From positions 5,887 through 69,886 of the forward strand of contig CAYHBB010000003.1 of assembly GCA_964354795.1 (NCBI GenBank): a DNA stretch of 64,000 nt, given 5' to 3'. The stretch is from an uncultured Planctomycetales bacterium (GTDB taxonomy: Bacteria > Omnitrophota > Gorgyraeia > Gygaellales > Profunditerraquicolaceae). This document shows, in pieces, positions 3 to 54,762 of the stretch. A program made the position numbers and the translations under genes. Positions within the stretch are counted from its first letter, which is position 1, and each line of letters opens with the position of its first letter. The notes under the pieces were generated by a model that was not told where the DNA came from, made no database searches, and saw only the letters and a program-made list of their open reading frames with translations.

Positions 3-2501
3 TTGATGGAACTTGGCGCTGGTTTTAATCCTGAGTTTACGGGGCGTGAAAATATTATTATTAATGCGCGGGTATATGGTTTGCATGAGGATGTTCTTGC
101 GCAAAAGATTCCGGAAATCCTTGAGTTTTCAGGGCTGGGAAGATTCATTGATGCGCCGATAAAATATTATTCGCAAGGCATGTATATGCGTTTGGCGTTT
201 GCTCTTGCTGTATTTGTCGAGCCCGATATTTTTTTGGTCGATGATATATTGTCAGTAGGGGATGAGGATGCGCAACAGAGGTGTATTAAGAAGATATTTG
301 AGTTAAAGAAATCCGGTAAGACTATAGTTGTTGTCAGTCACGACATGAACATAGTAAGCAGGCTCTGCGACCGCGTTATACTGTTGGATCACGGAAGAAT
401 TGTCCAGGAAGGCCAACCGGGGAAGGTTCTTTCATACTATTTGGAAACAGCTGGTGAAAAGAAAGGAATTGCTTCTTTTGAGCATGACGGGATAAGGGTC
501 GTGTTTAATAATGGCAGGCTAGGCGTTTCATATCGCGGCAACCTGATTACTAAAGGCGTCGGTGCTCATACCATATTCTATGATCGTTTGCTTGGCAGTT
601 ATGTAACTTCCGAAAATCTTTCTTGGCAGATAAGCTCTATTTCTGCAACTGAAATCATCGCTGAGGGGTGGATGCATGAAGGCCAGCTTTCGCAGGTATG
701 GTCAATAGGGTTGTCTTGCGGTGATTTGTCATTTCAGGTCAAGATAGAAGATCAGTGTAAGCAGGAGTTTCATATGGATTTCTTGCTTAAGCCTCAATAC
801 GTATCCTGGAATACATTCGATGTAAGCGGTATATTCCCGCCGTATGTTCATAAAACTAATTGGCAGAGTTTGAATATTGGTGTTCCGGAAGAAGGATTGG
901 TCGCGTTAAGTCCAGGCTCGCAGGAAGAAAATACGCCTTCTATTGTTTTTGAAAATACTTATAAGGACAGCGAGATACGATTATTTAATACGGGTTATGA
1001 TCAGGAATCACGGGGTTTGCAGTATTTTTTAGGGCAGGAGGGGGCAATTTCAATCCGTTTAAAAACGATCCCTAGCATAAAAGACTATCAAAACTTTGTT
1101 GAGTCTAAGAAGAAAGAGCTATTGCTAAATAAAGACCTGAAAAAATGGAGAGCGTTAGCAGTGCAAAGAATTTCCTGCGGTGATATAAGTTTTTTTGTAG
1201 ATATCGAAAATAAAATTTTGCGGATTTTCTCAAAAGATGCAGAGATAACCAGCGGGGGCGGTTTGCGGGCATTGATAACCGTAGGGGGCTCTTTGTATAG
1301 CTCTAAAGATGCGCAGTGGCAGGTTCGCAAAATTTCAGGGCAATTGTTGGAATTGACAATGGAATATGGGGCAATGCCATTTACTCAGCGGTGGATATTC
1401 AATGCTGAGCAGGAAAATACAATTACCTACTCAATAAAGATGGAGTCTGAGCAACGAATAGTTTTTAAAAAGCAGGATGTGGTCCTGGAGGTTGTTGATA
1501 GTTATATTAGTTGGCGGACACCATACGAAGAAGGAGGGTTTACTGAGGCTCAATATGTTTTGGGGATCCTTCCTGTGCGTTTGCGTGAAAGTAAAGTCAG
1601 GGAGATATCGCTAGCGTCTATGAGCAATGGAGCGTCAGATTATTTATTTCTCCAGGTAACACCGAGTCCGCATAAACAATTATTGGGGATTTATAAACAG
1701 AATTTATCGCAAAAAGAAAGCGTGTGTGTGAATTCCTCGATTATCGTTTCGAAAAATAATGAACTGCTTGAAGGCGGGATACATGAAGTTTTTGATGCGA
1801 AGATAGTCTTACATAGAGATATTAGTCCACGGAGTTCTTCAGTATTAGGCGAGGATATAACATTAGAGAATAAAAAATTGCGGATTGTTTTTGATCAAGG
1901 AAGAGGGAGAATCTTTTGGGGAGAGACAGAGGTGACTGTTGGATTAGGCCTTTTTACATCCGTGCGTTCATCCGGCATTTGGCATGATTCTTATCAGGCG
2001 GCATGGGATAAGGATTATGTTCGGGATAATAAAATAAGCGTTACTGGCTATTGGCCGTATATCCCCATTGTCCAGACATGGCAGATCCAGCTTTTAGATA
2101 GCAAAACAATTTACTGGAAAGTGGATGTGAAGGTTCTTGCTCCTTTTAATCTGGAGTTAGAGCAGTCGAATCTTATGCTTTCTGCGGAATATAAAAAATG
2201 GTCTGTTGACGGTGGTATTGGTGGTGACTTTTTAGATGAGTTTACCCGGCAATACGATATTCTGCCGTTTCGGTTTTGGTATGGCAAGTCTTTGCAAAAT
2301 GGTATAGTCGTTCGTGCTAATCTTTCTTCAGTCTTGTTCCAGGATAAATCAGGCAATGAAGATACCAGGGGAATTGTAGAGAATAGCGATTATCTATATG
2401 GGGCCCGTATGCTGCAATATCAGAATTCTCCTAAAGCGGATGCGTCCCTTGGTCAATATACGTATTTTGAAGGGGTGATACACGTTGAGTCTGAAGAATA
2501 A
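3..2501 (+). CDS. Wzt/TagH-type polysaccharide-export ABC transporter ATP-binding protein, 5'-truncated at the window edge, with a ~680-aa C-terminal extension of three ~120-aa W-rich repeats
   Basis: The first ~150 aa match the C-terminal half of TagH/Wzt nucleotide-binding domains: signature YSQGMYMRLAFALA, Walker B/D-loop FLVDDILSVGDEDAQ and H-loop VVSHDM. The ORF runs to base 3, so Walker A lies outside the window. Three repeats follow with the pattern F..G.G...G..T.G.GL......G.W.DS..A.W......PI.Q.W.I....I.WK. Confidence 0.85.
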   Translation: MMELGAGFNPEFTGRENIIINARVYGLHEDVLAQKIPEILEFSGLGRFIDAPIKYYSQGMYMRLAFALAVFVEPDIFLVDDILSVGDEDAQQRCIKKIFELKKSGKTIVVVSHDMNIVSRLCDRVILLDHGRIVQEGQPGKVLSYYLETAGEKKGIASFEHDGIRVVFNNGRLGVSYRGNLITKGVGAHTIFYDRLLGSYVTSENLSWQISSISATEIIAEGWMHEGQLSQVWSIGLSCGDLSFQVKIEDQCKQEFHMDFLLKPQYVSWNTFDVSGIFPPYVHKTNWQSLNIGVPEEGLVALSPGSQEENTPSIVFENTYKDSEIRLFNTGYDQESRGLQYFLGQEGAISIRLKTIPSIKDYQNFVESKKKELLLNKDLKKWRALAVQRISCGDISFFVDIENKILRIFSKDAEITSGGGLRALITVGGSLYSSKDAQWQVRKISGQLLELTMEYGAMPFTQRWIFNAEQENTITYSIKMESEQRIVFKKQDVVLEVVDSYISWRTPYEEGGFTEAQYVLGILPVRLRESKVREISLASMSNGASDYLFLQVTPSPHKQLLGIYKQNLSQKESVCVNSSIIVSKNNELLEGGIHEVFDAKIVLHRDISPRSSSVLGEDITLENKKLRIVFDQGRGRIFWGETEVTVGLGLFTSVRSSGIWHDSYQAAWDKDYVRDNKISVTGYWPYIPIVQTWQIQLLDSKTIYWKVDVKVLAPFNLELEQSNLMLSAEYKKWSVDGGIGGDFLDEFTRQYDILPFRFWYGKSLQNGIVVRANLSSVLFQDKSGNEDTRGIVENSDYLYGARMLQYQNSPKADASLGQYTYFEGVIHVESEE

Positions 2502-53715: not shown

Positions 53716-54762
53716 ATGTCTGAATATAAAACAATTGATTCGTGCACTTGGGAACTTACCTTTCGTTGCAACGCAAAATGTCCTTTTTGCTATCAGGACA
53801 ATACTCCCACCAAAGAGCTGTCAACCAAAGAGTCATTTCAAGTACTAGATAAATTAGCGGAAAACGGGATTATCTTTCTTTTGTTTACCGGTGGCGAACC
53901 AACGGTAAAAAAGGAATTTATTCAGATATACCGGTATGCCGCAAAAAAAGGCTTTCAGATTTCTATTCTTACCAATGGGATACGGCTCGCCGATAAAGAT
54001 ATCCAGGATCTTTTTACTGAGTATCCGCCTGTTGGAGCCGTGATTAGCCTCCATGCTCTAGATGAGGCCATTTTTGAGCAGGTGAGCTGTGTACCCGGAT
54101 CTTTCAAGAAAGTTATGGCCGGTCTGGAATTCTTAAAAAAAATAAAAGTAAAATATAGTTTTAAAATAATAGTTACAAAGATTAACGCTCAATCTATAGG
54201 CGAAATTAAAGACTATTGTCATCAGAATTCAATAGGGTACGAGTTGACACCTAATATATGTAATAGTCTTAATGGAAAGAGAGCTAATGATATAAATGAT
54301 ATAAGGCTTGAATTTAACGAAGCGAATAATTTATTTTTTCAAGAAGATTACGGACGCGTTTTTGATGAAATGGAGCGTAAGCTAGGAAATTTAGATAACA
54401 AATTTAAGAAGAGAAGGTCAAGGTTTAATTGCGCGCTTGTTTATCGCACGATTTGGCTTGATCCGCTTGGAAACACTTTTATTTGTGCCATGTTCAGAGA
54501 TAAGCCCAGATTAAATATTCTTAAAGACTCAATAGATGAGATTTATAAAAAACATCTGGAAATTGCTAATGATTATGAAGTTAGGCCACCCGAATGTTTA
54601 AAGTGTGAGTATCTTCCGGAGTGTAAGTATGCTTGTGTCTGCGGAATAAGAAATGCCCGAAGAATATCCAAAGAAGAGTTCGATTATGTATGTAACGGGC
54701 TTAAGAGTATTATCCATCTAAGAAGAAGGCTGGATAAGAATAAGTTAAACATCGCCGTTTAA
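53716..54762 (+). CDS. radical SAM/SPASM-domain enzyme, candidate peptide maturase
   Basis: FRCNAKCPFC (CxxxCxxC), LFTGGEPT, C-terminal C-x2-C-x5-C-x3-C-x-C (ECLKCEYLPECKYACVCG) canonical SPASM core. Confidence 0.8.
   Translation: MSEYKTIDSCTWELTFRCNAKCPFCYQDNTPTKELSTKESFQVLDKLAENGIIFLLFTGGEPTVKKEFIQIYRYAAKKGFQISILTNGIRLADKDIQDLFTEYPPVGAVISLHALDEAIFEQVSCVPGSFKKVMAGLEFLKKIKVKYSFKIIVTKINAQSIGEIKDYCHQNSIGYELTPNICNSLNGKRANDINDIRLEFNEANNLFFQEDYGRVFDEMERKLGNLDNKFKKRRSRFNCALVYRTIWLDPLGNTFICAMFRDKPRLNILKDSIDEIYKKHLEIANDYEVRPPECLKCEYLPECKYACVCGIRNARRISKEEFDYVCNGLKSIIHLRRRLDKNKLNIAV

Follow-up and report, generated by a model that had tools for sequence, protein, structure and literature searches.

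Radical S-adenosylmethionine (SAM) enzymes that act on sugars are known mainly from small-molecule antibiotic pathways, and those that act on peptides from ribosomally synthesised peptides that carry post-translational modifications (RiPPs). Lipid-linked sugars are tailored and then passed on by GT-C glycosyltransferases in the ArnC/ArnD/ArnT pathway (aminoarabinose, lipid A) and by DprE1/E2 with arabinosyltransferases in mycobacteria; we know of no characterised radical SAM precedent on polyprenyl-phosphate sugars. In the hopanoid side-chain route of HpnI, HpnK and HpnJ, N-acetylglucosamine is transferred and deacetylated, and a radical SAM enzyme then contracts its ring to give a cyclitol ether (PMC13459092). 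In E. coli O9a, whose O-antigen pathway depends on an ABC transporter, Wzt has a carbohydrate-binding module that reads the terminal modification of the glycan before export (PMC3482155). Here we describe a locus with features of these systems in a stretch of 64,000 nucleotides (the window) from an uncultured bacterium assigned to Omnitrophota (contig CAYHBB010000003.1, positions 5,887 to 69,886). Between positions 2485 and 54762 it carries 11 radical SAM modules in 10 genes. Five of these modules form a conserved cassette beside a polysaccharide exporter, and on balance nine of the eleven probably serve the tailoring of a surface glycan and of its lipid-linked sugar donors.

The window opens inside a gene for a Wzt-like ABC ATPase (3..2501, plus strand), which is cut by the window start; what remains is the last 150 aa of the nucleotide-binding domain and, after it, an all-beta extension of 680 aa. 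The nucleotide-binding part matches ATPases of O-antigen and teichoic-acid exporters (PDB 8dku, E 5e-42; TarH and TagH; NCBIfam TagH/Wzt). Wzm and a WecA-like gene lie outside the window and are present in two related contigs, L001 and L051; in L051 the genes upstream of the position of our window start encode a family 4 glycosyltransferase (GT4), a WecA-like Glycos_transf_4 protein, an FAD oxidase, a tetratricopeptide repeat (TPR) protein and Wzm. Using L001 and L051 for the upstream genes, we found all three components of ABC-transporter-dependent glycan export: a Wzt/TagH ATPase, an ABC-2 permease and an initiating transferase. By gene content, Wzt, the upstream genes and the glycosyltransferases thus have the layout of such a pathway. 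The likeness to E. coli O9a (WecA, WbdABC, the WbdD cap, Wzm/Wzt) extends to the GT4 enzymes, to Wzm/Wzt and the WecA-like initiator (in L051), to an extra C-terminal beta-rich domain on Wzt, and to a tailoring enzyme encoded beside the exporter. In contrast to O9a, where Wzt has one small module and tailoring is by a kinase/methyltransferase, Wzt here bears three 230-aa supersandwich copies of a domain that is also found on the tailoring enzyme, and tailoring would be by a double B12-type radical SAM protein and three paralogs. The top 50 fold matches of the Wzt extension included no known Wzt-C structure.

The exporter gene is followed on the same strand by the core cassette. A 1250-aa fusion protein (2485..6237; Pfam Radical_SAM 132 bits) begins with a domain that we call the X-domain (aa 40-275, nt 2602-3309) and continues with two separate Radical_SAM stretches, both of the cobalamin (B12) type: module 1 at about aa 300-760 (CX3CX2C at nt 4000-4023) and module 2 at about aa 790-1250 (CX3CX2C at nt 5518-5541). 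Next come radical SAM paralogs 1 (6218..7483), 2 (7470..8696) and 3 (8693..10090), and the glycosyltransferase GT4a (10094..11266; Pfam Glycos_transf_1 and Glyco_trans_1_4). The first-pass annotation had seen in 6218-10090 an overlapping array of paralogs, and this was borne out: the three are full-length paralogs with pairwise identities of 39-40% over about 390 aa (40% between paralogs 1 and 2, 39% between paralog 3 and either), their open reading frames (ORFs) overlap by 4-20 nt, and the motifs CxxxCxxCW, GGGEPF and PCYxGWxFARI are invariant in the alignment. The overlaps between core genes fit translational coupling. Paralog 1 scores 83 bits for Radical_SAM and 45 bits for SPASM; in the SPASM-type C-terminal domain of the triplet just four Cys are conserved (C321, C339, C394 and C398 in paralog 1 numbering), which suggests one auxiliary cluster and a twitch-like arrangement.

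The X-domain is common to the fusion and the exporter. It spans about 230 aa, has no Pfam model, and occurs in three copies in the Wzt extension (nt 453-1148, 1149-1832 and 1836-2492) and in one on the fusion, whose aa 40-275 show homology to each of the Wzt repeats (E 8e-13, 9e-9 and 2e-5). An AlphaFold2 (AF2) model of the Wzt extension is all-beta, with a mean predicted local distance difference test (pLDDT) score of 76.6. Foldseek matched the X-domain to the galactose-mutarotase-like supersandwich of glycoside hydrolase family (GH) 94 phosphorylases, cyclic beta-1,2-glucan synthase, GH2 beta-galactosidases, GH38 mannosidases and mutarotase (E 1e-8 to 1e-3, probability 1.0). A profile search of 1.84 billion representative proteins returned 555 members of the family with 1-8 copies per protein; among 40 sampled proteins, 11 contained ABC_tran, nine Radical_SAM (eight with SPASM, two with B12-binding) and eight PMT_2. 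In Omnitrophota loci the domain is always located at the junction of Wzt and the radical SAM genes, with 3-5 copies on Wzt and one at the start of the B12 protein; in an alternative form it is a separate ORF of 260-300 aa between the two. A domain that is shared by the exporter and the radical SAM fusion, and whose modelled fold is of a carbohydrate-binding type, points to a glycan substrate. Of the arguments that the core radical SAM enzymes act on the exported glycan, this sharing is the strongest.

All eleven modules scored above the gathering score of PF04055 Radical_SAM (39-132 bits against 29.5), and each has exactly one CX3CX2C, at residues 506 and 1012 of the fusion and at residues 58, 41, 70, 182, 206, 222, 39, 26 and 18 of the other ORFs. 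Eleven modules in about 52 kb, as first counted, are therefore confirmed, and the lack of a three-Cys core from most of them, which would have spoken against that count, was not observed. The proposed division into five B12-binding modules and six SPASM/twitch-like enzymes held in part. Above the PF02310 B12-binding cutoff of 32.1 bits were the fusion (49 bits, two stretches) and the proteins that we call E (29611..30996; 37.1 bits) and G (42212..43891; 57.8 bits). Protein F (31809..33185) stayed below it at 23.2 bits, although the HpnJ and BchE profiles aligned with F from its N-terminus, the HpnJ profile over positions 46-445 of 472. No cobalamin riboswitch was found in the window by Rfam. 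The triplet members were the sole ORFs above the Pfam SPASM threshold (PF13186, 45-53 bits against 21.5; profile positions 1-56 of 67). Protein J (53716..54762) has the canonical seven-Cys SPASM spacing (CX9-15GX4C...CX2CX5CX3C...C) without a Pfam SPASM match, and H (49361..50404) and I (52046..53104) have C-termini that are only rich in Cys. On these sequence features the label 'SPASM/twitch-like' fits four of the six non-B12 enzymes, the triplet being twitch-like and J having the SPASM spacing, and is plausible, though less clear, for H and I.

Radical SAM genes account for 10 of the 44 genes in the interval (binomial tail 2e-11 to 5e-5 with an assumed background of 1-5% radical SAM genes in an anaerobe); the suggestion that the host is anaerobic agrees with the Omnitrophota assignment. 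The density had been called exceptional, and it is far above the assumed background, but this genome is not alone in it. More than 15 Omnitrophota loci keep the order Wzt, double-B12 fusion, three paralogs, GT4a; there, five CX3CX2C modules fall within about 7.5 kb, and in some genomes the fusion is split. Paralog 2 has 240 homologs, overwhelmingly from Candidatus Omnitrophota and with a typical identity of about 57-68%, and each paralog has orthologs of its own (51-63% identity for paralog 1, 57-67% for paralog 2 and 35-49% for paralog 3). Judged by these identities, the three paralogs are old. The fusion, three or four paralogs and GT4a are also found together, at 37-47% identity for the cassette, in Woesearchaeota (including the GW2011_AR15 chromosome), in bins labelled 'Methanosarcinales' and in some Proteobacteria and Desulfobulbaceae. 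Such loci outside Omnitrophota carry 4-8 modules per 7-14 kb (5-8 in the archaeal loci), with identities of 43% over about 990 aa for the fusion and 43-51% for GT4a. The archaeal carriers of the fusion, the paralogs and GT4a (37-51% identity) are of the DPANN type (Woesearchaeota L022, L023 and L025; also L019 and L026). GT4a is the most constant partner other than radical SAM genes, with 43-63% identity among Omnitrophota, archaeal and proteobacterial loci. Since the cassette is conserved across domains, the local density of radical SAM genes belongs to the conserved unit and not to this genome alone. The distribution suggests that the cassette has been transferred between domains, among ultra-small organisms. 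In the literature searched we found no description of the cassette or of the X-domain.

We compared the modules with curated families and solved structures. No module reached the cutoff of any curated NCBIfam family, so the placements that the first-pass annotation had named (anSME, PqqE/MftC, AlbA, SCIFF and GenK/Fom3/TsrM) were not obtained. Among RiPP maturase models, the highest scores were 66 against a cutoff of 381 for PqqE, 83 against 265 for MftC, 63 against 850 for AlbA, 65 against 300 for SkfB and 83 against 625 for StsB; scores for the anSME and SCIFF models were likewise below cutoff. Models for B12 methylases of the GenK/Fom3/TsrM/PhpK type also scored too low, with maxima of 70 against 500 for the TsrM model, 214 (from two modules) against 600 for the PhpK family and 161 against 282 for rSAM_ocin_1. 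The closest models for the B12 modules were HpnJ, BchE and PhpK, all far under their cutoffs: HpnJ (TIGR03471, cutoff 577.6) gave 308.7 bits for the fusion (two modules summed), 164.8 for F and 127.7 for G, and rSAM_ladder_B12 gave 136.9 for G, also under cutoff. For the triplet the best model was TIGR04317, a maturase of tungsten-cofactor oxidoreductases, at 112-117 bits against 380.

Among solved structures, sequence matches in the PDB place AprD4 (6fd2, E 4e-26) closest to fusion module 1; module 2 matches CysS, OxsB and RimO. AprD4 is also nearest to F (E 1e-19); for G the nearest is 9ccb, an uncharacterised radical SAM structure (E 1.7e-15), with AprD4 second (E 1e-9) and CysS also matched. 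AprD4 is annotated as an oxidoreductase/diol dehydratase of sugars and not as a methylase. A reading of the class-B B12 modules as methylases is not supported by these matches over dehydratase or rearrangement chemistry. For paralog 2 the best match was the twitch domain of BtrN, and BlsE was also near for the triplet. The nearest solved relatives by sequence thus include AprD4 (diol dehydratase), BtrN (twitch dehydrogenase) and BlsE, which like DesII are sugar-acting radical SAM enzymes of antibiotic pathways, and the four C-terminal Cys of the triplet are twitch-like as well. The identities are nevertheless low (E 1e-5 to 1e-26, over partial lengths), and unlike these enzymes, which belong to small-molecule clusters, the present ones lie in a surface polymer locus with five enzymes per cassette. 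Foldseek with the AF2 model of the triplet (pLDDT 84 for paralog 2) returned SkfB, CteB, SuiB, DesII, BlsE, PqqE, MoaA and anSME at about equal template modelling (TM) scores of 0.5-0.6; with all matches so similar, the fold does not discriminate between substrates.

Four further radical SAM proteins, E to H, lie among other glycan genes, all on the plus strand. An operon opens with an S24/signal-peptidase-like protein (27819..28688) and a P-loop HPr-kinase-like protein (28696..29604), both with weak Pfam/NCBIfam matches only. It continues with E (Radical_SAM 54.5 bits; CX3CX2C at aa 182), a family 2 glycosyltransferase (GT2) that resembles the polyprenyl-phosphate sugar synthases ArnC, PgfS, AglJ and PpgS (31018..31761; best NCBIfam matches, all under cutoff), the HpnJ-/AprD4-like F, a YdjC/HpnK-like carbohydrate deacetylase (33173..34030), a GT-C-like membrane protein with a weak PMT_2 match and six transmembrane segments (34020..35435), and a SAM methyltransferase identified by Pfam (35429..36241). 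The first genes are 6-7 nt apart, and from E to the methyltransferase neighbours overlap or are separated by at most 47 nt, with overlaps at the starts of the deacetylase, GT-C-like and methyltransferase genes. The mechanical call of the deacetylase ORF (33380) appears to be 69 aa too short and to lose the NADDFG N-terminus; the upstream in-frame translation is IKQLIINADDFGLS, preceded by GGAG, and a non-canonical ATT start at 33173, within the end of F, is probable. The full-length protein scores 217.7 bits with the HpnK model (cutoff 232.6; profile positions 2-281 of 283).

G follows two polytopic membrane proteins with 11-13 transmembrane segments (38679-40451 and 40515-42137). Its first start codon is the TTG at 42212, the start given earlier (42260) being internal, and it scores 67 bits for Radical_SAM. 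Downstream are an uncharacterised protein (43884-45590), an ArnC-like polyprenyl-phosphate glycosyltransferase (45592..46563; ArnC model 162 bits), a SAM methyltransferase (46609..47442), an AsnB-type glutamine amidotransferase (47449..49368; TIGR01536 456 bits, above the cutoff of about 266-267), H, and a membrane protein with 11 transmembrane segments (50401-52011). H overlaps the end of AsnB, scores 75 bits for Radical_SAM and 99 against 306 for its best NCBIfam model (PTO1314 family), and matches SkfB and MoaA in the PDB. A lasso cyclase role for AsnB was considered and rejected, the glutamine amidotransferase domain being intact.

The order GT2, B12-type radical SAM enzyme with HpnJ as its best model, YdjC deacetylase is that of HpnI/HpnK/HpnJ, with the differences that F scores far under the HpnJ cutoff, that the GT2 is like ArnC/PgfS and not HpnI, and that hopanoid genes are lacking. 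A GT-C transferase after F and YdjC implies a polyprenyl-phosphate sugar and not a hopanoid acceptor, and from the ArnC-like GT2 and the GT-C that follows we infer that such a sugar is tailored before transfer. As in Arn- and Dpr-type pathways, ArnC-like GT2 enzymes (31018, 45592 and 23997), tailoring enzymes and PMT_2-type GT-C transferases are clustered in operons, and an FAD oxidase is paired with a GT2 (22687-24728); the difference is that tailoring here would be by radical SAM enzymes.

At the right edge of the locus lies a cassette of another kind. I (Radical_SAM 39 bits) is its first gene and is followed on the plus strand by a stand-alone RiPP recognition element of the PqqD family (53219..53587; Pfam PqqD 40.2 bits against 23.4), a precursor-like peptide of 38 aa (53556..53672; MEEKRKWENPEVELISIDMDQIFTVGFSGGCCGCCCCC) and J (Radical_SAM 77 bits), which has no N-terminal recognition domain. 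The leader of the peptide includes KWENPEVELISID, its C-terminus is the nearly pure Cys run CCGCCCCC, and AGGAGG is found 6 nt upstream of its ATG. In L047 and L048, whose J proteins are 80% identical to the present one, a conserved ORF in the same position ends in GGCCCCC, and the length of the Cys run varies among relatives. The ortholog of I upstream of PqqD is retained in L046 and L047 (94% nucleotide identity to L047). For J, 28 homologs were found; its best solved relatives are SkfB (E 4e-16), SuiB and PqqE, and its distant relatives adjoin PqqD, ScmC and small ORFs. A PqqD gene, an adjacent conserved short ORF and a radical SAM maturase, the components of a RiPP cassette, are all present. 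By these features, the SkfB/SuiB/PqqE relatedness and the company of PqqD and ScmC in relatives, I and J are most likely peptide maturases. With clusters for polytheonamide proteusins, SCIFF/ranthipeptides and SynChlorMet the I/J cassette shares the stand-alone PqqD, an enzyme with SPASM-type Cys spacing and the short Cys-rich precursor; it differs in that its enzymes reach no NCBIfam maturase family and in a core peptide that is nearly pure Cys (CCGCCCCC or CCCCC), and the five core modules differ further in lacking RiPP hallmarks. A core of this kind is not known to us from any characterised RiPP.

The eleven modules are thus at least three sub-systems: the core five, the E-H accessory set and the I/J peptide cassette. 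Tailoring of a glycan or a peptide, as first suggested, finds both contexts in the locus, nine modules with glycan genes and I/J with a peptide, but not as one system. From domain content, paralogy, conservation and synteny, from the sharing and fold class of the X-domain and from the conservation of the peptide, we infer substrates and reactions as follows. In the core, a WecA-like enzyme would start a polyprenyl-diphosphate-linked glycan, which GT4 enzymes would extend on the cytoplasmic face. The double B12-type fusion would dock on this glycan via its N-terminal X-domain and, with the three paralogs, would perform H-abstraction chemistry on sugar carbons (C-methylation, dehydration/rearrangement, oxidation or epimerisation). 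The three X-domain copies of Wzt would bind the same glycan, to be exported with Wzm. E, F, G and H would act on polyprenyl-phosphate-linked single sugars made by the ArnC-like GT2 enzymes; these sugars would be trimmed by the HpnK-like deacetylase, the methyltransferases and AsnB, and GT-C (PMT_2-type) transferases would then decorate the exported polymer. I and J with PqqD would mature the 38-aa Cys-tail peptide separately, at the edge of the locus. The reading that we favour, with a modest measure of confidence, is that nine of the modules serve the radical tailoring of a surface glycan and of its lipid-linked sugar donors. A bolder version is tentative and, in our estimate, would rather not hold in full: that the cassette of five modules and GT4 is a mobile unit of Omnitrophota and DPANN archaea for radical editing at the polymer level (C-methylation, deoxygenation, epimerisation or carbocycle formation on assembled residues), in which the editing enzyme, the Wzt exporter and the GT-C transferases all read one glycan via the X-domain, and the X-domain gates export on modification.

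Several observations weigh against glycan tailoring. Every NCBIfam match of the modules is far under cutoff, and there is no characterised homolog. Some proteins with the supersandwich fold bind no carbohydrate, for instance the P1 domain of YidC (among the Foldseek matches); confidence in the X-domain model is moderate, with eight sequences in the alignment behind it; and the archaeal versions of the fusion are without an X-domain. S24-like, HPr-kinase-like and NTP_transf_5 families accompany exopolysaccharide loci and also some RiPP clusters. In the Foldseek ranking for the triplet the peptide maturases SkfB, CteB and SuiB stand level with or above the sugar enzymes DesII, BlsE and BtrN, and a protein substrate could be encoded outside the locus.

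The most probable of the alternatives is that most or all of the radical SAM enzymes, even the core five modules, act on a peptide or a secreted or surface protein (a RiPP, an S-layer or giant adhesin-type protein) and that the glycosyltransferases glycosylate the same polypeptide; the locus would then mature a glycosylated RiPP or glycoprotein, in a proteusin-like logic. SPASM/twitch enzymes are mostly peptide maturases, a genuine cassette of PqqD and precursor lies in the same locus together with HPr-kinase-like, NTP_transf_5 and AsnB-type genes, and PMT_2 enzymes are able to O-glycosylate proteins. In the core, however, no PqqD or recognition domain was matched by Pfam, and the N-terminus in the triplet model consists of two short helices. 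In about 40 related loci, as in this one, the core is accompanied by neither a precursor gene nor a recognition element, and the overlaps between the ORFs here leave no intergenic room for a precursor. The universally conserved partners are Wzm/Wzt and GT4a and not a peptide, a protease or a RiPP exporter, the X-domain has a carbohydrate-binding fold of the glycoside-hydrolase type, and AsnB scores as a true asparagine synthase-type amidotransferase and not as a lasso cyclase. We consider a polypeptide substrate for the core unlikely.

A lipid substrate (the polyprenyl carrier, a hopanoid-like or ether lipid, or the tail of a glycolipid), with the locus making a radically tailored glycolipid, appears slightly less probable again. 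The enzymes would then resemble HpnJ/HpnR, ladderane-associated B12 enzymes or tetraether synthases; the best NCBIfam models of the B12 modules are indeed the lipid-pathway enzymes HpnJ and, for G, rSAM_ladder_B12, an HpnK-like deacetylase follows F, and GDGT-MAS is among the fold and sequence matches. Yet all lipid-model scores are well under cutoffs of 360-578, and no squalene-hopene cyclase or lipid-synthesis genes were found in the window by Pfam. The triplet was tried as a tetraether-lipid enzyme (Tes/Mss) and rejected, with just 36 bits for the Tes model against a cutoff of 450. The linkage of X-domain and Wzt points to a polymer, and HpnJ itself has been proposed to act on the glucosamine ring and not on the lipid (PMC13459092).

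The base composition and assembly of the locus bear on the remaining alternative. GC is 41% in the core cassette, 32-38% at 12-56 kb and 44-47% further right, so that 12-56 kb looks like a horizontally exchanged variable island of the kind typical for surface polysaccharides; Omnitrophota polysaccharide cassettes have been reported as hypervariable (preprint 10.64898/2026.06.07.730766). An assembly chimera had been named as a concern. Both ends are matched by independent contigs: window positions 1-12501 are 96.7% identical to the JGI contig L051, positions 50193-55315 are 100% identical to the Logan contig L046, and the gene order of 51.8-64 kb is retained in L047. Scans of metagenome contigs for a copy of 12.5-50 kb, with a wobble-masked pattern of the RuBisCO-like gene and with a 66-nt stretch common to the window and L051, gave zero matches, which leaves that part without an independent copy; exact look-ups with paralog 2 and with the RuBisCO-like protein likewise yielded no record. 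That the modules have no common function, a hypervariable island having accreted unrelated radical SAM genes or the middle having been mis-assembled, is the least probable of the alternatives: the GC drop, the gene content downstream of GT4a that differs between relatives, the reported hypervariability, the mere 28 homologs of J and the uncorroborated middle fit it, but the core five form a unit that is conserved and whose ORFs overlap, E, F and H sit close among glycan genes, with overlaps to neighbours, both window ends are backed by independent contigs, 10 radical SAM genes among 44 is far above chance at any plausible background rate, and accretion would account for the total number without making the sub-systems non-functional.

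The remaining genes of the locus are largely of the glycan type. Between the core and the accessory modules, on the plus strand, two GT-C (PMT_2) transferases with 6-10 predicted transmembrane segments (11282-12877 and 14848-16356) flank GT4b (12874-13983) and a GT2 (13980-14846), all assigned by Pfam; these genes are predicted to elongate and decorate the glycan after the core steps. An NTP_transf_5 gene (16369-17496) and a MobA-like sugar-phosphate nucleotidyltransferase (17527-18306) follow. The latter overlaps a member of the RuBisCO large-subunit superfamily (18303-19559), which in turn overlaps a second nucleotidyltransferase-like ORF downstream (19541-20278). The RuBisCO-like protein is under all NCBIfam cutoffs (form III 213 against 497, DK-MTP-1-P enolase 193 against 409, OiaX 162 against 700); it possibly produces an unusual sugar phosphate for subsequent activation with a nucleotide. 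The sole minus-strand pair of the locus (22687-24728) encodes an FAD amine-oxidase/UDP-galactopyranose-mutase-like protein and an ArnC/Dpm-like GT2. The pair is also found in L029, and in many Omnitrophota loci the oxidase is immediately upstream of Wzm; here it therefore seems relocated.

In total the locus has two GT4 and at least seven GT2 enzymes (3-4 of them like the polyprenyl-phosphate sugar synthases ArnC, PgfS and AglJ), four GT-C proteins that match PMT_2 and one that matches it weakly (34020-35435), three more polytopic proteins with 11-13 transmembrane segments, a second ABC-2 pair, two SAM methyltransferases, AsnB, the YdjC deacetylase, the nucleotidyltransferases and a Wzy_C/O-antigen-ligase-like membrane protein. 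The last (55775..56920, minus strand; Wzy_C 63 bits) marks the right end of the glycan locus, a position kept in L047. No tRNA gene marking an island border was found in the window. Outside the glycan locus, Rfam placed a c-di-GMP-I riboswitch aptamer at 60542-60638 (plus strand; 37.3 bits, gathering score 35). A CHAT-TPR gene is upstream of the aptamer, and a small ORF that looks secreted (61249-61659) and a BNR/sortilin-like protein are downstream. The aptamer falls inside the minus-strand ORF 60180-60962, which is thus probably spurious.

For the discovery of RiPPs, the cassette with the Cys-tail peptide is a small lead of its own. The unannotated X-domain family (about 555 members), which links exporters, radical SAM enzymes and GT-C transferases, is a handle for finding such systems and offers several uncharacterised enzyme clades for biochemistry. 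If the proposed role is true, a set of five modules wired to a polysaccharide exporter would extend radical SAM chemistry to cell-surface polymers. The setting would then be Omnitrophota and DPANN archaea, two uncultured groups of ultra-small cells that are associated with hosts and whose surface glycans probably mediate attachment to the host.

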